Of a DNA stretch of 64,000 bases, positions 14,621 to 55,267 are shown piece after piece. The stretch is from Anaerohalosphaeraceae bacterium. Its GTDB lineage: Bacteria; Planctomycetota; Phycisphaerae; Sedimentisphaerales; Anaerohalosphaeraceae. Each line of letters begins with the position of its first letter. The stretch's first letter is position 1. The notes under the pieces are model-generated. The model did not search any database. It was not told the DNA's origin and was given only the letters and a program-made list of their open reading frames with translations. The position numbers and the translations under genes were made by a program. Location: assembly GCA_037479115.1 (NCBI GenBank), contig JBBFLK010000002.1, forward strand, positions 148,040 through 212,039, written 5' to 3'.

Positions 14621-15610
14621 TTACAATCCCAAGGCCGCCGGAAATTTCTGCTTCATCTCCTCAAGATTCTCCCGCTCGACAATCATACTGTCAATCGGGA
14701 CCTCTTTCGGAACGGTTTTGCCCTCCACGGCCTCAATCAGAATCCGAACCCCTTCATATCCAATCGCAAAGGGGTTCTGCACCACGAGGGCCTCGACCCC
14801 TCCTTTTTCAATCCCTTCCAGCACCACCGGGTCCGAATCAAAGCCGACCATTTTCACCTTGCCGAGCAGATTCTGGTTCTGCAGGGCCTTATAGGCCCCC
14901 ACCGTTGTCGGCTGATTGACGGCAAAAAGCCCCACAACATCTGCATTGCGCATCAGCATATCCACCGTCTTCTGGCGGGAATCTTCCACCGTGCCGAGTG
15001 TATACTGCTCGGCGGCAATCTGCATTTGCGGAAATTCGCGGGCCAGGGTCTCCCGAAACCCCTGAGCACGGGCGTCGGTGGAGGCGGAGTTTTGAATAAA
15101 CTTTGTCAAAATGACTTTGCCTCTGCCGCCGCAGGCCTGCGCCAGGCGACGGGCGGCCTTGGCACCGCCCAGATAATTATCGGTAGCCACAAACGACACA
15201 TAATCCGCCGGGTCGGCCTCCACCGCTGAATCAATAATCACACAGGGAATGCCGGCGGCTTTGACTTTCTGCACGGGACGAGCCAGGGCTTTGGCATCGT
15301 TGGGCCCCAGGACAATCCCGACAACATTTTTCACAATGGCGTCTTCAACCGCCTGGATTTGTTTTTCCCGGTCACTTTCCTGCTCCGGACCTGTCCAGGA
15401 AATGATATAGCCGCGTTCCTGAGCGGCTTTGGCGGCCCCCTGCCGTACAACCTCCCACCACATCGAGGCCGTTCCTTTGGGAATGACGGCAATCGTTTTG
15501 GAAATGGACGCCCTCTGACGCAGCAGGCTGATTTTACGAATAACGCCCGAAGTGAAAAGCACAGCCGACAGACCAAGAATCAAATAAACCGCTGTCTGAC
15601 GCCATTTCAT
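14621..15610 (-). CDS. Periplasmic monosaccharide-binding protein (RbsB-like, Peripla_BP)
   Basis: N-terminal TM/signal sequence. Type-I periplasmic binding fold sequence (IAVIPKGT..., VDGIVLGPND-like, VGFD). ATG at 15610 with a GAGGGAAAGGGAA SD. Confidence 0.85.
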   Translation of the reverse strand: MKWRQTAVYLILGLSAVLFTSGVIRKISLLRQRASISKTIAVIPKGTASMWWEVVRQGAAKAAQERGYIISWTGPEQESDREKQIQAVEDAIVKNVVGIVLGPNDAKALARPVQKVKAAGIPCVIIDSAVEADPADYVSFVATDNYLGGAKAARRLAQACGGRGKVILTKFIQNSASTDARAQGFRETLAREFPQMQIAAEQYTLGTVEDSRQKTVDMLMRNADVVGLFAVNQPTTVGAYKALQNQNLLGKVKMVGFDSDPVVLEGIEKGGVEALVVQNPFAIGYEGVRILIEAVEGKTVPKEVPIDSMIVERENLEEMKQKFPAALGL

Positions 15611-17750: not shown

Positions 17751-17804
17751 TGAAAAAAAAGGAACCCGTCAGGCAAAATCAAGCCGGACGGGTTCTTTTT
17801 TTAT
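17751..17804. terminator. Bidirectional intrinsic terminator between convergent genes
   Basis: AAAAAAAA, then a 9-bp perfect stem GAACCCGTC (17762-17770) / GACGGGTTC (17787-17795), then TTTTTTTAT. The hairpin overlaps the last codons of ahbAB. Confidence 0.6.
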
Positions 17805-18740
17805 TTCACGAAGGGTTCTCAAGAGCACGAAATCGTCCAGCCCTGCCGCCCTTTGTGCCTGCTCCACCCAGCCGTTCAGCTCCTCCTCACTGCGGCTGTG
17901 CACCATCGCAAACAGATTATACGGCCAGTCTGGAAAGGTCCGCCGCTGATAACAGTGGCTCACTTGACGGAACAAAGCCAGTGCGGCACCGGCGGCTTCG
18001 ACTCGGTCTTCCGGGACCCGCCAGCAAACCATCGCATTAACACTAAAACCGAGCCGGTAATGATTTAATACGGCAGCGATTCTTTTTAAAACCCCCTTGT
18101 GCATCAATTCGCGAACCGCGTCCAGACAATCCATTTCCGCCGTCCCGGGGCACTGAGCGAACGGGTGCGGAACAACCGGAAATTCGCTCTGCAGAAACAT
18201 CAGAACCCGCTTTTGCTGCTCGTTCAGTGTCACCGGTTCTGACGGTTTTAAACCGCTATCCGCTCTTTCTCGGGCCGGCGGGTCCGCCAGAAAACGCACC
18301 TGAAGTTTGAATGTCCGGATGGCCGGCAGCGCATAAAAAACAAGACCGCAGCGGCTGGACAAGTCATCCAGAATCTGCTGAATCCGTTCATCAGACTCTG
18401 CCTGCAGTGTAAACCAGAGATTAAACACATGGTCCCGCAGGTATTGATGGGACACCCCCGGCAGCTCTCGAACGAGCGTGTTAACCTGCTCCATCCGGTC
18501 AGACGGCACGGAAGCCGTCACAAGGCAGGCCGTTCTGCCCAGCAAACGGGAATCGATTTGTCCGCGAAGCCGGCGGATGAACCCCTGCCCTTTGAGCCGG
18601 CCGATTTCCTTCAGCACCTGCTGCACGGAACAGCCTAATCGCTCTGCAATCAACTGATAAGGTTCCGGGACGACCTCAATTCCCCCTTCGAGAACGGCCA
18701 GCAGGTCTCTTTGAAAAGCGGTCAGCGAGTCGCTGTTCAT
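17769..18740 (-). CDS. ahbAB: Fused siroheme decarboxylase AhbA-AhbB (NirD/L/G/H-like, two Lrp/AsnC-type halves)
   Basis: The ATG at 18740 overlaps the upstream stop (ATGA). The 323-aa product has two repeats of the pattern (LT..Q..L...L......P....IA..LG.....V.......G.IRR...). The track ORF to 19076 is an over-extension into the upstream gene. Confidence 0.8.
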   Translation of the reverse strand: MNSDSLTAFQRDLLAVLEGGIEVVPEPYQLIAERLGCSVQQVLKEIGRLKGQGFIRRLRGQIDSRLLGRTACLVTASVPSDRMEQVNTLVRELPGVSHQYLRDHVFNLWFTLQAESDERIQQILDDLSSRCGLVFYALPAIRTFKLQVRFLADPPARERADSGLKPSEPVTLNEQQKRVLMFLQSEFPVVPHPFAQCPGTAEMDCLDAVRELMHKGVLKRIAAVLNHYRLGFSVNAMVCWRVPEDRVEAAGAALALFRQVSHCYQRRTFPDWPYNLFAMVHSRSEEELNGWVEQAQRAAGLDDFVLLRTLREIKKEPVRLDFA

Positions 18741-29441: not shown

Positions 29442-29992
29442 TCTTCACATCCTCGCGGATAAACACTGTTTCCAAAACAATCATACGCCACTACGGCCGG
29501 AAAATCCTCCAGCACCAGCTCCCGAACCGCCTCCGGCCCCAGTTCCTCATAGGCAACAACCCGGCTGGCGGTAATATGCCTGGACAGGAGCGCCCCAAAG
29601 CCGCCCATCGCCGAAAAATGAACCGCCCGATACTGCCGGAGGGCCTGCTGAACCTCTTTGGAACGGTATCCCTTCCCAATCGTCCCCTTCAACCCGGCCT
29701 GAAAGAGAGCCGGCGCAAAGGCATCCATTCGGGCCGATGTGGTCGGACCGGCCGAGCCGATTACACGCCCCGGCGCCGCCGGCGTCGGTCCCACATAGTA
29801 GATCACCGCCCCTTTCAGGTCAAACGGAAGCGGCTGTCCGGCTTCCAAAAGGGCACACAGACGCCGATGCGCCTGGTCGCGGGCCGCATAGACAACCCCG
29901 TTCAGACGCACCCAGTCTCCGGCCCGAAGCCGGCTGATTTGCTCGTCTTTGAGAGGGGTCTGGATTCTTGTTTCTGATAAAGGACTCATCAC
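29438..29992 (-). CDS. Class I (Fe-S) fumarate/tartrate hydro-lyase, beta subunit only
   Basis: 184 aa. GVVYAARDQAHRRL...IYYVGPTPAAPGRVIGSAGPTTSARMD matches the Fumerase_C domain. The stop overlaps the ychF ATG (ATGA). The start is GTG 29992 or ATG 29989. Confidence 0.8.
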   Translation of the reverse strand: MMSPLSETRIQTPLKDEQISRLRAGDWVRLNGVVYAARDQAHRRLCALLEAGQPLPFDLKGAVIYYVGPTPAAPGRVIGSAGPTTSARMDAFAPALFQAGLKGTIGKGYRSKEVQQALRQYRAVHFSAMGGFGALLSRHITASRVVAYEELGPEAVRELVLEDFPAVVAYDCFGNSVYPRGCEE

Positions 29993-48302: not shown

Positions 48303-49079
48303 ATGCACCCGCTCCACCAAAAACGAGCCTTTATCTGCGACATGGACGGGGTTTTGTATCACGGAAGCCGCCTGCTGGCCGGCGCCAAAGAGTTTGTCCG
48401 CTGGCTCAAAGAGCAGGGCAAACAATACCTTTTCCTGACGAACTCTTCCTCGCGAACCCCGGAGGAATTAAGCCGAAAACTGGCGGGGATGGGCATCGAA
48501 GTCTCGCCGGAACACTTCATGACCAGCGGGATTGCCACAGCTTCTTTTCTGGCCTCTCAAAAACCCGGCGGCAGTGCCTATATCATCGGCGACAACGGTC
48601 TGCGGCAGCCTCTTCTTGAACAGGGCATTCGCCTCACGGAAGAGAATCCGGATTATGTCGTCGTCGGGGAAACTGCTGCCTACAATTACGCCCAGATTGA
48701 AAAAGCCGTCAATCTCGTCCTCGGCGGCGCCAAACTCATCGGCACAAACCCCGACATCAGCGGTCCTGTAGAAAGCGGCATAGCGCCGGCCTGCCGCGCT
48801 CTTATTGCTCCGATAGAAATCGCCTCCGGCCGACAGGCCTACTTCATCGGAAAACCCAACCCCCTGATTATGCGGCATTCGCTCAAACGGCTTGCCTGCC
48901 GGCGGGAGGAAACCGTCATCATCGGCGACCGAATGGACACCGACATCATCGCCGGTATCGAATCCGAAATCGACACCGTCCTGGTTCTCAGCGGCATCAC
49001 ACAGGAAAAAGATATCCCGAAATTCCCCTATCGGCCCGATTATATCCTCAGCGGTGTGGGGGATATTCCGCTTCTGTAA
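48303..49079 (+). CDS. HAD-IIA family phosphatase (NagD-like)
   Basis: FICDMDGVLYHG (DxDG motif), LTNSS, GDRMDTDI. The ATG directly abuts the carB stop. Confidence 0.82.
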   Translation: MHPLHQKRAFICDMDGVLYHGSRLLAGAKEFVRWLKEQGKQYLFLTNSSSRTPEELSRKLAGMGIEVSPEHFMTSGIATASFLASQKPGGSAYIIGDNGLRQPLLEQGIRLTEENPDYVVVGETAAYNYAQIEKAVNLVLGGAKLIGTNPDISGPVESGIAPACRALIAPIEIASGRQAYFIGKPNPLIMRHSLKRLACRREETVIIGDRMDTDIIAGIESEIDTVLVLSGITQEKDIPKFPYRPDYILSGVGDIPLL

Positions 49080-49143
49080 AGAAAGGTACAGGACATAAAC
49101 AGTCCATATTTCAGGAACTTCAAAAAAATTTTTTATTTTCCTC

Positions 49144-49172
49144 TTGAACCGATCTTCATCATTCGATATACT
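49144..49172 (+). promoter_or_regulatory. Candidate trp operon promoter
   Basis: TTGAAC (49144-49149), 17 nt, TATACT (49167-49172), preceded by an A/T tract (AAAAAAATTTTTTATTTT). The leader ATG follows 7 nt later. Confidence 0.5.
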
Positions 49173-49179
49173 TGTTTCT

Positions 49180-49233
49180 ATGAATAGTATCGCCTTGACA
49201 CAAAAGGAGTATTGGTGGCGGCCGCAGGCTTAG
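49180..49233 (+). CDS. trpL: Candidate trp leader peptide (17 aa, tandem Trp codons)
   Basis: ATG AAT AGT ATC GCC TTG ACA CAA AAG GAG TAT TGG TGG CGG CCG CAG GCT TAG = MNSIALTQKEYWWRPQA*. Too short for the ORF track. Confidence 0.6.
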   Translation: MNSIALTQKEYWWRPQA

Positions 49234-49280
49234 GCCCGCGGTCGGCAGGAATTCTGTTTCCGTTTCCCGAAACATCTCTT

Positions 49281-49312
49281 CGACCCGGCCTCAAACCGGG
49301 TCGTTTTTTATT
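49281..49312 (+). terminator. Attenuator terminator upstream of trpE
   Basis: 8-bp stem CGACCCGG (49281-88) / CCGGGTCG (49296-303), loop CCTCAAA, then TTTTTTATT. It lies 32 nt before the trpE ATG. Confidence 0.65.
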
Positions 49313-49344
49313 CCCGAAACCCGAAAAATAAGGAACTTGTACAA

Positions 49345-50976
49345 ATGACAGATTATAAAACCAGAATCGAACAGGCCAAACCCGGACAAATCATTCCAAT
49401 GGTCCGGGAAATTGAACTGTCCTGCCCGGTGGAATTCTTCGCCCGCCTGAGCGACTACGGCCGGGCCCGCCACTGCTGTCTGCTCGAATCCCGCGATTAT
49501 CTTTCGGAGGCCAAAGGCAACGAACTGACGTTCGGAACTGCCGACCCGGCTCTCTACCTGACCGGCCGGGAAGACCGATTCGAAATCCGGGCCCTCAGCC
49601 CGACCGGCAAACGGATGATTCAATACCTGGCCGAACGCCCGGAACGCTTTGCTTTTTGCAAAACCGTCCAATTTACTCCGGAGGCCGTAACCGGCACCAT
49701 TCAGCGGCTGTCGGGCAAAACCGATGAGCATACCCGCCTCAAAAGTGTCAGCCAGATGGATGTCATTCGGGCCGTGGCCTTCGCGTTCGAGCTGGCCAGC
49801 CCCCCCTTCCGCGTCACCTGCGGACTGCTCGGGGCAATCAGTTATGATTTTATCGACCAGTTTGAAACCCTGCCGCCCAATCAGAATGACCTGCTGAACA
49901 ACCCGGATTATGAGCTGTACTTCGCGGACAATATCTTTCTGATGGACCACCACCAGAGCAAAGGGTACCTGATTGTCAACGCCGTCATTACCAACGGCAA
50001 CCGTCAGGCCATCTATGAAGAGGCCATGGCCCGTTTTGATTCCTATCTGAAACAAATGCGGACAGACCGCCCCGAACCATCCTTCTACGATGGTCCGCTG
50101 CCTTCTCCCGCAACCGACACCCCCCAGCCGGAGTACGAACAGATGGTCCGCACCGCCAAAGAGCATATTCGCAACGGTGACATCTTTCAGGTGGTTTTAA
50201 GCCGGACTATTACGGAACCCTGCCCCGCCGAGCCGCTGGACGTTTATCGCCGACTCCGCCTGCTCAATCCCTCTCCGTATATGTTCTATCTGAATACCGG
50301 CACCACCTGCCTGATTGGGGCCAGCCCCGAGCTGAACCTCCGCGTGAGCGGCAAAAAAGACCGCATCGTGGAAATCCGCCCCATCGCCGGCACCAAACCC
50401 CGCGGCTGGGTGGACGGTGTCATCGACCCCGAAACTGACATGCGCTATGAAGCCGAACTCCAGCTGGACCACAAGGAGCTGGCCGAACACATGATGCTGG
50501 TGGACCTGGCCCGCAACGACATTGCCCGCGTTTCACAGCCCGGCAGCCGTCTGGTCAATGAACTGCTCACGGTCGAACGCTACGAATCCGTGATGCATCT
50601 GGTCAGCAACGTCAAAGGAAAACTGCGTCCGGATTTGGATGCCCTCAGCGCGTACCTGGCCACAATGAATATGGGCACCCTCACCGGCGCCCCGAAAATT
50701 GAGGCAATGAAAATCATCCGCCGGCTTGAAAAGAATAAACGCGGCTACTACGGCGGTGCTGTGATGTACCTGACCGTGGACGGCCAATTCGACAGCTGCA
50801 TCACGATTCGAAGTCTCCAGATTCGGGACCATACCGCCTACATCCGCGCCGGAGCCGGAATCGTCTATGACAGCATTCCGGCCGTCGAATTCGAAGAAAC
50901 CGAAAACAAGGCCAAATCCTGCCTGAAAGCCGTTCGACTGGCCTGTGCGCAAGCCGCCAAACAACTTCAGCCGTAA
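49345..50976 (+). CDS. trpE: Anthranilate synthase component I
   Basis: 543 aa. Chorismate-binding C-terminal region (GAPKIEAMKII..., YGGAVMY, AGAGIVYDS). Confidence 0.93.
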   Translation: MTDYKTRIEQAKPGQIIPMVREIELSCPVEFFARLSDYGRARHCCLLESRDYLSEAKGNELTFGTADPALYLTGREDRFEIRALSPTGKRMIQYLAERPERFAFCKTVQFTPEAVTGTIQRLSGKTDEHTRLKSVSQMDVIRAVAFAFELASPPFRVTCGLLGAISYDFIDQFETLPPNQNDLLNNPDYELYFADNIFLMDHHQSKGYLIVNAVITNGNRQAIYEEAMARFDSYLKQMRTDRPEPSFYDGPLPSPATDTPQPEYEQMVRTAKEHIRNGDIFQVVLSRTITEPCPAEPLDVYRRLRLLNPSPYMFYLNTGTTCLIGASPELNLRVSGKKDRIVEIRPIAGTKPRGWVDGVIDPETDMRYEAELQLDHKELAEHMMLVDLARNDIARVSQPGSRLVNELLTVERYESVMHLVSNVKGKLRPDLDALSAYLATMNMGTLTGAPKIEAMKIIRRLEKNKRGYYGGAVMYLTVDGQFDSCITIRSLQIRDHTAYIRAGAGIVYDSIPAVEFEETENKAKSCLKAVRLACAQAAKQLQP

Positions 50977-50985
50977 GGAGATGCC

Positions 50986-51588
50986 ATGGAACCCGTACGT
51001 GTCCTCTTTATCGACAACTTCGACTCGTTTACCTACAACCTCGTCGATGAGTTCGCCAAACGCAAATGCCCTACGCTGGTCTACCGGGCCGATACCCCCC
51101 TATCCCAGCTGGTCCGCGCCGCCGAACAGTTCCAGCCGGACCTGCTGGTCATTTCGCCCGGACCGGGGAACCCGTCCACTGCGGGCGTCACCCTCGAAGC
51201 CATCGACTATTTCCACAACAAACTGCCCATCTTCGGGGTCTGTCTGGGCCATCAGGCCATCGTGCAGTACTTCGGCGGCACCGTCAGCCATGCCCCCTGC
51301 GTCATGCACGGCAAGGCCTCTCGAATCACCCACAACGGCAAAGGGGCCTTCGAAAACCTCGAAAATCCGCTCCACGCCGGCCGCTACCACAGCCTGTGTG
51401 CCGTCACCCTGCCGGACTGTCTGGAAGAAACCGCCTCCTTTGAAGGGGTCGTCATGGGAATCCAGCACAAAACCCTGCCGATTTACGGCGTCCAGTTTCA
51501 CCCGGAAAGCATCCTGACTCCCGCCGGCGGAAAAGTCATCGAAAACATCCTCAAAATCGCCCTCAACAACAAAAAGAAACACCCATAA
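50986..51588 (+). CDS. trpG: Anthranilate synthase component II (glutamine amidotransferase)
   Basis: VLFIDNFDSFTYNLV, GVCLGHQAI (catalytic Cys), FHPES. Confidence 0.93.
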   Translation: MEPVRVLFIDNFDSFTYNLVDEFAKRKCPTLVYRADTPLSQLVRAAEQFQPDLLVISPGPGNPSTAGVTLEAIDYFHNKLPIFGVCLGHQAIVQYFGGTVSHAPCVMHGKASRITHNGKGAFENLENPLHAGRYHSLCAVTLPDCLEETASFEGVVMGIQHKTLPIYGVQFHPESILTPAGGKVIENILKIALNNKKKHP

Positions 51589-51601
51589 AAGGAGAGCCGT
51601 T

Positions 51602-52621
51602 ATGACCAAAATTACCGAGTATCTCGAAATCATCCTCGAAGGGCACGACCTGACCTTCGAACAGGCCAAGCAGCTGCTGGACACCATCTTCAAGGGCGAC
51701 GTGGCTGAGGTCCAAATCGCCGCCTTTTTGGCGGCCATGCGGGTCAAAAAGGCATCCGTCAGCGAACTGGCGGGGCTGGCCACTTCTCTTCGGGAACATG
51801 CTGTGCCCGTCCGGGTCGGCATCGACAATCTCGTGGACACCTGCGGAACCGGCGGGGCCGCCCTGAAAACCTTCAACATCTCCACCGCCGCCGCCTTTGT
51901 CGCCGCCGGAGCCGGGGTTTATGTCGCCAAACACGGCAACCGCGGCATCACCAGCATCTGCGGCTCCGCCGACGTTTTAAGCGCATTGGGCGTCAATATT
52001 GAAGCCGGTCCCGATACGGTCGCCGAGTGCATTCGCCAGGCGCATATCGGCTTCATGTTCGCTCCGAAATACCACCCCGCCATGAAGCACGTCCAGCCCG
52101 TCCGAAAGTCGCTGGATTTCCGCACCGCCTTTAACATCCTTGGCCCCCTGGCCAACCCCGCCCGTGCCCAGGCGCAGGTCATGGGCGTCGCCGATGTGTC
52201 CCTGATGCCTCGCATCGCCGAAACCCTCAAAACCCTCGGTCTGAAGCGGGCGATGGTCGTTCACAGCAACGGCCTGGATGAAATCAGCACCATGGGCCCC
52301 ACCCGAATTCTTCATCTGATGCCGGACGGCTCTGTTACCGAGGAAATCCTCGACGCCGAGCGCTTCGGCATCCCCAAAGCCGAATTTGACGCCCTGGCCG
52401 GCGGCGATGCCGACACCAACGCCCACATCATCCGCGAAATCCTTTACGAAAAAGCCCCCGGCCCCCGAAAAGATATTGTGGTCCTGAATGCCGCCGCCGC
52501 TATAATGGTAGCCGGCCTGGCCAAAGATTTCGTCGAAGGCATCGAACGCGCCGACCAGGCCATTCACAGCGGAAAGGCCGCCGAATGCCTCGAAAAACTC
52601 ATTGAACTGAGCAATCGCTGA
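51602..52621 (+). CDS. trpD: Anthranilate phosphoribosyltransferase
   Basis: DTCGTGGA, KHGNRGITS and full-length TrpD similarity. Confidence 0.93.
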   Translation: MTKITEYLEIILEGHDLTFEQAKQLLDTIFKGDVAEVQIAAFLAAMRVKKASVSELAGLATSLREHAVPVRVGIDNLVDTCGTGGAALKTFNISTAAAFVAAGAGVYVAKHGNRGITSICGSADVLSALGVNIEAGPDTVAECIRQAHIGFMFAPKYHPAMKHVQPVRKSLDFRTAFNILGPLANPARAQAQVMGVADVSLMPRIAETLKTLGLKRAMVVHSNGLDEISTMGPTRILHLMPDGSVTEEILDAERFGIPKAEFDALAGGDADTNAHIIREILYEKAPGPRKDIVVLNAAAAIMVAGLAKDFVEGIERADQAIHSGKAAECLEKLIELSNR

Positions 52622-52626
52622 CAGGT

Positions 52627-53265
52627 ATGATCTTTACAAAAATCAAAATCTGCGGAATCACAAACCTGGACGATGCCTTAACCGCCGTCGAACTCGGGGC
52701 GGACCTGCTCGGGTTCATTTTCTACCCCAAAAGCCCCCGATATATTGACCCCCAAAAGGCCAGGGATATCATCGCCAAAATCCCAACCTTTGTCGACACC
52801 GTGGCCGTTTTCGTCAATCCGACCTTCCAGCAGGTCCAGGAAACCGCCCAGCAGGGCTGGTTTAATTGGGTCCAGCTGCATGGGGACGAGACCCCCGATT
52901 TCTGCCGGTCGCTCCACTGGCTCAACATCAAGCTGATGAAGGCCGTCCGGGTCAAAGACCGCTCCGATATCGACAAAGCCCTGACCTATCCGACCGATGC
53001 GGTGCTCCTGGACACCTACACCGACGGACTGTACGGCGGAACCGGACAGACCTTCGACTGGTCCCTCATCGGTTATCCGCCCCGGCGCATCTTCCTGTCC
53101 GGCGGAATCGGCCCCCACAATATCCGTCAGGCCCTCGAAGTCGGAACCTACGGCATCGACGTCAACAGCGGTGTGGAAAGCGCCCCCGGCAAAAAAGACC
53201 CTGCAAAACTCAAACAGCTTTTTGACTCCATCAGCCGTATCCACGGCGGAAAGGTCCATATATGA
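52627..53265 (+). CDS. trpF: Phosphoribosylanthranilate isomerase
   Basis: [13 protein letters not shown]...[16 protein letters not shown]..., VQLHGDE. Confidence 0.9.
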
Positions 53266-54449
53266 AATCCAAAGGACGATTCGGTCCCTTCGGCGGCTAT
53301 TATGTGCCGGAGGTGCTTATTCCGGCCCTCGAGGAAATTGAGGCCGCCTTTGAACAATTCCGGGAAGACCCGAACTTCCTGAAAGACTTAAACGCCCTCT
53401 ATACCGACTATGCAGGCCGGCCTACTCCCCTTTATCATGCCCGCCGATTCAGTGAAGAGGTCGGGTTTACAGTCTATCTGAAGCGGGAAGACCTTCTGCA
53501 CGGCGGCGCCCACAAAATCAACAACACCTTAGGACAGGGACTTCTGGCCCGCTATATGGGCAAAACCAAACTCATTGCCGAAACCGGCGCCGGCCAGCAC
53601 GGCCTGGCAACCGCCATCGTCGGAGCCCTCTTCGGAATGGAAACCAAAATCTTTATGGGCGCAACCGACGTCGCCCGCCAGAATGTCAACGTCCACAAAA
53701 TGAAACTTCTCGGCGCCGAAGTGATCCCTGTGGAAGGCGGCACCGGAACCCTCAAAGACGCCATCAACGAAGCCCTTCGATACTGGACAGCCCATGTCGA
53801 AGATACTTTTTATCTGTTTGGAACAGCCGGCGGGCCTCATCCCTACCCGACCATAGTCCGGCACTTCCAGGAACCCATCGGACGGGAGGCCCGGCAGCAA
53901 TGCCTCGAAAAAGCCGGCCGGCTCCCCGACCTTGTCACGGCCTGCGTCGGCGGCGGCTCCAACGCCATCGGCATTTTTTCGGGTTTCCTCAATGACCCGC
54001 AGGTCCAGCTGGTCGGCGTCGAAGGCGGCGGAAAAGGCCTCCACACCACCCAGCACTGCGCCACCCTCTGCACCGGCACGGTCGGCGTCCTGCACGGAGC
54101 CCGTACCTACCTGCTGCAGGATGAAAACGGACAGATTCGCGACACCGAATGCATCTCTGCCGGTCTGGACTACCCGGGCGTCGGGCCCGAACACGCCTAC
54201 CTGAAAGAAACCGGACGCGCCCGTTACGTGAGCGTCTGCGATGAGGAGGTTTTGGATACCTTTTTCCTGTTCTCCCGAATGGAAGGCATCCTGCCGGCCC
54301 TCGAAAGCACCCACGCCCTCGCCTGGCTCGTCCGGCAAAAAGGACTTCTCCCGCCGGATACCATCGCTATCGCCAACCTGTCCGGACGGGGCGACAAAGA
54401 CATCGATATCGTCGAACACCACAGACCCCTGACTGCGAGGTCCCTATGA
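53262..54449 (+). CDS. trpB: Tryptophan synthase beta chain
   Basis: [29 protein letters not shown] (PLP lysine), GGGSNAIG. Confidence 0.96.
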
Positions 54450-55267
54450 ATCCCTATCAGAGTTGCTTTTCCAAACTGAACCGGGCGGCCCTGATTCCCT
54501 TCTTCGTCATCGGCGACCCCTCGTACGACATTTCTTTACAGCTGGTCAAGGCCGCTGTGGACGCCGGCGCCGACATTCTCGAACTGGGCATCCCCTTTTC
54601 CGACCCCGTAGCCGACGGCCCTACCATCCAAAAAGCCGACCTGCGGGCCCTGAAGGCAGGCATCACACCCGCCAAAGCCCTTCAATTTATCCGGGAAATT
54701 ACGGCCTATAAACCCATCCCCATCGGCCTGCTGGTCTATTACAACCTCCTCGTCCAGTACGGAACCGAACGGTTCCTGCAGGATTTTAAAAAAGCCGGCG
54801 GCACCAGTGTCCTCGTGGCGGATTTGTCCATCGACGATGCCGATGAAATCGCCATTCCGGCCAAAAAAGCCGGGCTGGAAACCGTCTTTATGGCTACCCC
54901 CAACACCCCCGACGAACGGCTCCGACGCATCGCCGAAAAAACCACAGGGTTTATCTACACAGTCTCTCTGCTGGGAACTACCGGGGAACGCCAGGCCCTT
55001 TCCAACGCCGTCCGCCCGCTGGTAGCCCGGCTGAAACGGCTGACGGACAAGCCCGTGTGTGTCGGGTTCGGCATCAGCACCCCTCAGCACGCCTGCGAGG
55101 TTGCCCGGGCAGGCGCAGACGGAGTAATTATCGGCAGCCGAATTGTGAAATTTATTGAAGAAGCCCCCGATAACCCGGAAAAAATGCGGGAGAATATTAC
55201 ACGGTTTCTTTCGGAGGTTCGAGCCGCCCTGCCCCCCAAAGGACCGACGGCAAAAACCGACGCCTAA
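54446..55267 (+). CDS. trpA: Tryptophan synthase alpha chain
   Basis: [34 protein letters not shown]. Confidence 0.93.

Follow-up and report, generated by a model that had tools for sequence, protein, structure and literature searches.

Between the genes for CarB and a HAD hydrolase (Pfam) on one side and the tryptophan operon trpEGDFBA on the other, the stretch of DNA analysed here (the window, 64,000 nucleotides (nt) in all) carries a short leader at 49144-49312 on the forward strand, in which a promoter-like pair of hexamers, a mini open reading frame (ORF) with two tryptophan (Trp) codons and a terminator follow one another. The original prediction had seen in this leader a ribosome-mediated attenuator on the pattern of the Escherichia coli trp leader, placed ahead of trpE on an apparently leaderless transcript, and the genes downstream are indeed those of the Trp pathway by Pfam. 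Our analysis leads to the same interpretation: the element is probably a leader-peptide attenuator that would tune trpEGDFBA to the supply of charged tRNA-Trp and would do so on a leaderless transcript.

What does the leader encode, and how can its RNA fold? The ORF opening at ATG 49180 reads exactly as first described, with 17 codons and adjacent TGG TGG at 49213-49218 (ATG AAT AGT ATC GCC TTG ACA CAA AAG GAG TAT TGG TGG CGG CCG CAG GCT TAG), its stop codon lying at 49231-49233; it thus has the clustered end-product codons that characterize the mini-ORFs of this class of attenuators. Segment 1 of the RNA starts at the base after the second Trp codon and pairs with segment 2 in a hairpin that RNAfold reproduces as originally drawn, CGGCCGCAGGC (49219-49229) with GCCCGCGGTCG (49234-49244) in 7+3 bp, with a local free energy (dG) of -22.9 kcal/mol and a 4-nt loop, UUAG, that holds the stop codon 1 nt before segment 2. 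The proposed 8-bp terminator with its run of T was likewise found by scanning: CGACCCGG (49281-49288) pairs with CCGGGTCG (49296-49303), followed by T6 at 49304-49309 (dG -15.1 kcal/mol), between the mini-ORF and the first gene, 35 nt before trpE. For the alternative pairing of segments 2 and 3, the antiterminator, the original prediction had given 8 bp with one bulge; the pairing itself is real, and its size has to be corrected to 12 bp with two single-base bulges, 49232-49245 with 49280-49291. Of the folding energies proposed at the outset as a check, the one for this pairing comes to -22.6 kcal/mol when 49232-49292 is folded with segments 1 and 4 absent, a fold that contains the 12-bp antiterminator.

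In silico, antiterminator and terminator would exclude each other. The complete 133-nt leader folds as hairpins 1:2 and 3:4 (-47.1 kcal/mol, z = -2.5 versus shuffles), whereas before segment 4 exists all eight bases of the terminator 5' arm pair upstream. A mask placed at the stop codon covers segment 2, and the terminator alone then forms. These masked folds, and the placement of the stop codon, match the model of a sensing ribosome, for which a footprint of the size known from E. coli was assumed.

The closest TrpE (L001, 98% identical) comes from an uncultured Phycisphaerae metagenome-assembled genome (MAG), and a set of Sedimentisphaerales-like MAG and metagenome contigs follows at 65-73% identity; Sedimentisphaerales is an order within the Phycisphaerae, Planctomycetota. 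By these TrpE relatives the host is Phycisphaerae/Sedimentisphaerales-like and its genome MAG-like, in keeping with the planctomycete-like host that the original prediction had considered. Taxonomic labels of MAGs were used as deposited, and the Pirellulales label on some records was treated with caution because those records interleave with Sedimentisphaerales ones. For comparison we took the Phycisphaerae trpE loci with enough upstream DNA (L001-L014, L023, L048, L081-L093, L095 and L120; n = 31), in which TrpE identity to the window falls from 98% to 41% and at least two orders are represented.

All 31 loci carry the same device, consisting of a mini-ORF, hairpin 1:2, an antiterminator and a terminator with a U-run, so that the Trp-rich mini-ORF ahead of trpE passes the test of conservation to which the original prediction had exposed it. 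The related mini-ORFs comprise 15-27 codons, start at an ATG devoid of a Shine-Dalgarno (SD) sequence and place one to three Trp codons directly 5' of the hairpin, with WWW in 21 of the 31. The distance from the ATG to the first Trp codon takes nine values, from 7 to 18 codons, and the promoter-proximal ATG is in frame every time. A typical leader reads M(R/K)QINRKNTGNWWWPAG before the stop; the window's ending, YWWRPQA, aligns with the WWRP variants of L087 and L090, and the most distant leaders, at a TrpE identity of 41%, read MTVAVCKSLFRWWWCNPSGG (L023) and MSFTGHAHRLGWWWSCSGGRGLCA (L048). One locus, L081, looked at first like an exception without the device, a possibility ruled out when its leader, MYRIAEHWNYWRWPDG, was found about 450 nt upstream of trpE, set apart by an insertion of about 300 bp. 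This insert (L081:1180-1500), between terminator and trpE, is AT-rich and internally repetitive, with TTTTGATTT-like motifs, and looks like a small insertion or repeat element.

The pairings were counted on an alignment of 29 sequences (A1). Helix 1:2 is paired in 89% of the cells, with three pairs changed on both sides, and helix 3:4 in 94%, with 6 of 10 pairs changed on both sides; RNAalifold independently returns these two helices. Helix 2:3 is paired in 87.6% of the cells, again with 6 of 10 pairs changed on both sides, and pairing drops to 25-49% when the partner is slid by one to three columns. These counts are conservative, because MAFFT misaligns the most divergent leaders. The 2:3 duplex of the relatives, at -11 to -24 kcal/mol, equals 3:4 in stability, and its z versus shuffles lies below -2 in 24 of 30 leaders. 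Every lineage shows a likeness between segments 1 and 3 and another between segments 2 and 4, while the sequences themselves differ, CGGCCGC... and CGACCCGG in the window's lineage versus GGCCUGYNGG and GCAGCCUGUYGG in the others; lineage-specific segments that keep their mutual likeness are what we read as covariation at the level of whole helices. The 1:2, 2:3 and 3:4 logic of the E. coli attenuator, claimed for the window, is therefore found there and, with compensatory changes in all three helices, throughout the 31 relatives. Beyond the terminator, the spacer from the U-run to the trpE ATG measures 51-53 nt in about 20 loci (e.g. L005:2948-3000, L006, L007, L012, L088) and holds a conserved block, UUUGUAUUU..(U/G)AUUUGCG(A/G)AUAGAAA; the window's 35-nt spacer differs.

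Could a short ORF with TGGTGG have come to lie beside an ordinary terminator by chance? The single elements are short, and promoter and terminator scans of a 2.5-kb stretch gave no enrichment over shuffles. Against chance stand the conservation in 31 of 31 loci, the covariation, and the performance of a covariance model, R1, which was built from 25 Sedimentisphaerales leaders with the window and L001 excluded and which matches the window at 49207-49312 with 35 bits (E = 4.7e-5). The conservation and this held-out match reduce a chance co-occurrence to a practically negligible probability. R1 also recovers the held-out leaders of L001, L010 and L048. Its match to the leader is the only significant one in the 64 kb; the next, at 17753-17872 on the minus strand (E = 0.38), looks like an ordinary terminator and was set aside, as was the one other short-ORF candidate examined for a leaderless attenuator, at 14656 on the minus strand, which lies within an ORF of 336 amino acids.

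The leader falls outside the known RNA families. At gathering thresholds, no Rfam family matched anywhere in the window, and on 49080-49360 at E <= 10 only sub-threshold matches driven by the terminator appeared, none of them to the Trp_leader family RF00513 (gathering threshold 41 bits). That family matched none of 10 Phycisphaerae loci either and found its positive controls in Vibrio (L036, 58.9 bits) and Pectobacterium (L050, 63.7 bits). In the opposite direction, trp leaders of Gammaproteobacteria reach 30-40 bits with R1, the range into which the window itself falls (L036:2621-2723, L056:2775-2881, L034:2707-2805 and about 40 other loci), and its match on the Vibrio locus coincides exactly with that of RF00513; the Corynebacterium loci L064 and L069 are absent from its matches at E <= 1. 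The signal common to R1 and the gammaproteobacterial leaders consists of UGGUGGUGG, a hairpin at once thereafter and a terminator at equal distance. The cross-match thus points to the same architecture and does not by itself separate common descent from convergence. Other regulators of trp genes were considered and rejected: a T-box riboswitch has no Rfam match at threshold in the window and none among the weak matches on the leader region, and for attenuation of the TRAP (mtrB) type, which in Bacillus needs 9-11 (G/U)AG triplets spaced 2-3 nt, 49180-49312 offers three such triplets about 20 nt apart.

The start of the transcript bears on how the ribosome would be loaded. A consensus scan returned the very promoter originally proposed, TTGAAC and TATACT around a 17-nt spacer, with 7 nt (TGTTTCT) between the -10 box and ATG 49180; the window shares this geometry and its 9 of 12 consensus matches with L001. 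Of the 31 related loci, 28 have a promoter whose -10 box stops 6-10 nt short of the leader ATG. Most of these promoters match the consensus at 10-11 of 12 positions (L009, L081 and L091 match 8-9 or were identified by eye); the spacer is exactly 17 nt, an extended -10 TG is usual, and the -35 box reads TTGACA or TTGACT and is preceded by T/A-rich tracts like that at 49121-49139 in the window. Neither the window nor the relatives have an SD-like sequence between the -10 box and the leader ATG, nor is there room for one, whereas in nearly all loci AAGG stands 7-12 nt ahead of trpE. The anti-SD duplex averages -2.0 kcal/mol at leader ATGs versus -4.5 kcal/mol at the trpE ATGs of the same loci (Wilcoxon p = 6e-5), with +0.3 and -5.1 kcal/mol, respectively, in the window. 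Between the window and L001, both hexamers are intact while the spacer and the DNA 5' of the -35 box have heavily diverged. Hexamer conservation, geometry and the lack of an SD form the pattern expected of a functional promoter firing at or beside the AUG, and we infer that a sigma-70-type promoter starts the transcript at, or within about 1-3 nt of, ATG 49180. The leaderless peptide of the original prediction is supported as far as sequence analysis reaches, the promoter geometry being consistent with a start at the ATG.

The main open alternative, which we consider unlikely, is that the attenuator is real and its transcript is not leaderless, transcription coming from farther 5', be it from a different promoter or as read-through out of the HAD-hydrolase and carB genes, and the leader being translated by internal initiation that needs no SD. 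The transcription start site (TSS) is a predicted one, and the window promoter, taken alone, is of modest significance, since at 9 of 12 matches the scan yields about as many such sites in shuffled sequence. Read-through is possible in the window, where no convincing terminator follows the upstream gene (stop at 49079), and where the gap behind the -10 box measures 9-10 nt, the transcript may begin 1-3 nt ahead of the AUG. What this alternative leaves unaccounted for is the constant distance of near-consensus promoters to the ATG, the survival of the hexamers amid diverged DNA and a start codon with neither SD nor space for it; L001, moreover, has a terminator-like hairpin of its own after the upstream gene. 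As to control at the promoter itself, the comparison of window and L001 revealed no conserved operator-like sequence in the spacer, so that TrpR-type repression is not evident and attenuation may be the sole control.

On a leaderless transcript, the attenuator would work as follows. Before RNA polymerase has left the leader, ribosomes would engage the AUG at the 5' terminus; with the AUG placed there, the sensing ribosome would bind directly to the nascent 5' terminus. If Trp-tRNA were scarce, the ribosome would stall with UGG 49213-49218 in its decoding site and cover segment 1 (49219-49229), and segment 2 (49232-49245) would be left to pair with segment 3 (49280-49291) once this is made; with 2:3 formed, the 5' arm of the terminator would be occupied and the polymerase would read into trpE. 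If Trp-tRNA were plentiful, the ribosome would reach UAG 49231-49233 and cover segment 2, and the terminator (49281-49303 with U6) would form and stop transcription near 49305-49312. Untranslated transcripts would fold as 1:2 and 3:4 and also terminate.

Most relatives possess an additional long-range helix, P0, in which leader codons 2-6 (e.g. GGCAAAUUAACCG) pair with the 12-13 nt directly 3' of segment 2 (CGGUAAUUUGCU); in L095:1307-1448, leader nt 5-17 pair with nt 69-81. Compensatory changes affect 9 of its 12 pairs, and in about 20 loci the duplex has a z of -2.7 to -4.8 versus shuffles. P0 may keep untranslated leaders locked in the terminator conformation and prevent repeated, leaderless initiation, much as the ribosome-binding site of E. 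coli trpL pairs with a distal leader segment; together with 2:3 it would be topologically a pseudoknot. A possible repeat of the P0 3' arm downstream of the terminator was considered and dropped, as it stands above shuffles (z <= -1.8) only in L005, L012 and L088 and shows no covariation.

P0 also bears on whether the peptide, or the leader RNA acting in trans, is what selection has kept. An arrest peptide resembling TnaC, or a trans-acting leader such as peTrpL/rnTrpL of Sinorhizobium, could operate instead of or beside cis attenuation, and the recurrence in many relatives of the ending WWWP(A/V)G and of the start MRQINRKNT would fit such a role; RNA and peptide of the Sinorhizobium meliloti Trp attenuator are documented to act in trans (PMC6614838, PMC7298713). 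RNA pairing accounts for the conserved residues, however: the codons of the C-terminus belong to stem 1:2, where they covary with segment 2, and those of the N-terminus, MRQINRKNT, form P0. Distant members share the Trp run alone (...YWWRPQA in the window, ...RWWWCNPSGG in L023, ...GWWWSCSGG... in L048), and a sensor of the TnaC type switches expression on in the presence of Trp, the opposite of what a biosynthetic operon requires. A peptide or trans function in place of or beside attenuation is thus very improbable; as an added function, a trans role is conceivable.

Several features weigh against the attenuator as proposed for the window itself. Since its two strands are rich in GC, the 2:3 duplex taken alone (-18.1 kcal/mol) barely exceeds what chance would give: 4% of segment-2 shuffles match it (z about -2, p about 0.04). 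With segment 1 masked in the full-length RNA, the two states are close to isoenergetic, the terminator state (-26.1 to -28.4 kcal/mol) being favoured over the antiterminator state (-24.6 to -25.6 kcal/mol) by 1.5-2.8 kcal/mol at equilibrium, so that antitermination must rest on kinetics, with 2:3 forming first; published energies for the E. coli trp leader give a like picture. P0 is missing in the window, where the best duplex of 49180-49210 with 49245-49278 reaches -7.1 kcal/mol and is no better than shuffles, and also in L001. The promoter is the weakest of the set, with 9 of 12 matches and no extended -10 TG, and there are two Trp codons, of which the closest relative, L001, retains only one (TGG CGG). 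Finally, the TSS, the translation of the mini-ORF, the premature 3' ends, the kinetic precedence of 2:3 over 3:4 and the response to Trp are all inferred from sequence.

With two Trp codons here and one in L001, the window's lineage may have a weaker or decaying sensor. A former attenuator that now acts as a constitutive or partial terminator and senses Trp inefficiently would account for the single Trp of YWRRPQA in L001, the modest 2:3 duplex, the lack of P0 and a promoter below the 10-11 matches of most relatives. Yet between the window and L001 the leader is almost unchanged while the flanks have diverged by about 45%, and the two substitutions in hairpin 1:2 fall in the loop and in a bulge, avoiding paired positions; WWR(R)P variants with intact structures occur in L010, L087, L090 and L093; and two Trp codons suffice in the E. 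coli trp leader. Such decay therefore appears improbable, and an attenuator still in operation remains our preferred interpretation. In L001 itself (leader at L001:2836-2889, MNSIVVTQKEYWRRPQA), CGG stands in place of the second Trp codon, and together with the WWR(R) variants of the four other loci this suggests a recurrent drift from UGG to CGG at the last Trp position. Within the window's leader ORF, AAGGAG (49204-49209) precedes an out-of-frame TTG (49212) or GTG (49215) that would open an alternative frame of about 39 codons through the terminator; having no Trp codons, and with the SD-like motif missing in all relatives except the near-identical L001, this frame was rejected. The AAGGAG could in principle recruit or pause ribosomes and is probably incidental.

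The features of the leader and of the operon behind it are collected in Table 1.

Table 1. Leader and trp operon features in the window, with the basis of each assignment
Feature	Position	Strand	Basis
A/T-rich tract, putative UP-like element	49121-49139	+	read from sequence
-35 hexamer TTGAAC	49144-49149	+	sequence, consensus scan, comparison with relatives
-10 hexamer TATACT	49167-49172	+	sequence, consensus scan, comparison with relatives
Leader-peptide ORF, MNSIALTQKEYWWRPQA then stop	49180-49233, stop included	+	read from sequence; homologues in 31/31 relatives
Tandem Trp codons TGG TGG (putative sensing codons)	49213-49218	+	align with UGGUGG(U/C)GG of relatives
Segment 1, CGGCCGCAGGC, 5' strand of anti-antiterminator hairpin 1:2	49219-49229	+	RNAfold
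Segment 2	49232-49245	+	pairs with segment 1 (via 49234-49244) or, as antiterminator, with segment 3
Segment 3, antiterminator 3' strand	49280-49291	+	spans the whole terminator 5' arm and the first 3 loop bases
Intrinsic terminator, 8-bp stem (7 G-C pairs), 7-nt loop, T6	49281-49309	+	scan and fold
trpE SD-like TAAGGAA	49329-49335	+	read from sequence, anti-SD duplex
trpE	49345-50976	+	Pfam and ORF map
trpG	50986-51588	+	Pfam and ORF map
trpD	51602-52621	+	Pfam and ORF map
trpF	52627-53265	+	Pfam and ORF map
trpB	53262-54449	+	Pfam and ORF map
trpA	54446-55267	+	Pfam and ORF map
Putatively regulated operon trpEGDFBA	49345-55267	+	Pfam matches, ORF map

The operon does not include trpC, the gene for indole-glycerol-phosphate synthase, which must lie elsewhere. 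Within trpE codons 3-12, a promoter-like match on the minus strand (49352-49379; TTGGCC and TATAAT around 16 nt, 10 of 12) faces back across the attenuator; it is probably due to chance, the underlying codons not being conserved in relatives. Elsewhere in the window, the divergent ORFs at 29989-29992 on the minus strand (183/184 amino acids) and 30119 on the plus strand (212 amino acids) each have a TATAAT box that ends 5-8 nt before the start codon and may represent further leaderless mRNAs in this genome. The TrpE proteins of eight contigs labelled Nanoarchaeota, Nanohalarchaeota, Methanosarcinales, Falkowbacteria or uncultured archaeon (L015-L022) are 45-54% identical to that of the window, more than that of any non-Phycisphaerae bacterium in the scan and more than those of L023 and L048 (41%), which could result from lateral transfer or mis-binning; the DNA upstream of trpE in these archaeal and candidate phyla radiation (CPR)-labelled contigs was checked, and no Trp leader was found.

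How does the element relate to known systems? With gammaproteobacterial trpL (RF00513) it shares the tandem Trp codons in a mini-ORF of about 14-25 codons, directly 5' of segment 1, the stop codon between segments 1 and 2, the mutually exclusive 1:2, 2:3 and 3:4 pairings and the U-run terminator just upstream of trpE. The Phycisphaerae leaders differ in escaping RF00513, in their phylum, in having no conserved operator-like sequence that would speak for TrpR-type repression, and in an AUG that would lie at or near the 5' end and has no SD, whereas the 5' untranslated region of E. coli trpL measures about 26 nt and contains one. Since a model built from one group recognises the other, the two might share ancestry.

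Leaderless leader peptides for Trp and other amino acids are not new in bacteria. In Deinococcus deserti, a differential RNA sequencing (dRNA-seq) study describes a leader peptide ahead of trpEGD whose mRNA has its mapped TSS a single nucleotide upstream of the start codon; the genome has 14 such leaderless leader peptides by prediction, this one included (PMC4007540). This is the same arrangement of a leaderless leader peptide before a trpE operon in another phylum, with the TSS measured there, whereas in the Phycisphaerae it is structure and conservation that are demonstrated and the TSS that is predicted. The trp leader of Corynebacterium diphtheriae, MTNMNAHNWWWRA, has the same WWW-R motif, again in another phylum; no TSS was found for it, and the ilvB leader peptide of that genome is encoded on a leaderless transcript (PMC5784534). 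Trp-dependent attenuation has been demonstrated experimentally in Corynebacterium glutamicum and Streptomyces venezuelae, as cited in a further article (PMC4833913). S. meliloti, too, has a ribosome-dependent attenuator upstream of trpE(G), the terminated trpL leader RNA being a discrete small transcript; the trans functions of rnTrpL and peTrpL are documented there alone (PMC6614838, PMC7298713). According to an article of 2010, no leader-peptide systems were known outside Proteobacteria and Actinobacteria, and a first case was proposed for Firmicutes (PMC2965389). Full-text literature searches on attenuation and on leader peptides or leaderless mRNAs in Planctomycetes and Phycisphaerae brought up no account of this kind of element, which agrees with the original impression that none had been reported for this group. 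What is new, then, is the phylum, a leader outside the coverage of Rfam and some 30 natural variants of it; as the mechanism is a textbook one, the finding is an extension and not a conceptual surprise.

Leader-peptide attenuation, and by implication functional coupling of transcription and translation, would thereby be extended to the Planctomycetota, class Phycisphaerae. It would also be the third example at the level of phyla, after Deinococcus and Actinobacteria, of leader peptides on leaderless mRNAs, and lends weight to the idea that leaderless initiation suits co-transcriptional sensing well. A broader scenario, which we put forward tentatively and hold to be possible rather than probable, is an old, class-wide Phycisphaerae family of leaderless Trp attenuators in which a 70S ribosome assembles on the 5'-terminal AUG with the polymerase within about 100 nt, in most members, though not in the window, gated or locked by P0. 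If true, it would provide direct genetic evidence for obligatory coupling of transcription and translation in a Planctomycetes-Verrucomicrobia-Chlamydiae (PVC) phylum whose cell plan once raised doubts on this point. The roughly 30 natural variants, with covariation for three alternative helices, could seed a new RNA family and improve the annotation of MAGs. For these uncultured anaerobes themselves, the attenuator predicts that trpEGDFBA is tuned by charged tRNA-Trp, which would be relevant wherever auxotrophy or cross-feeding is inferred from metagenomes.

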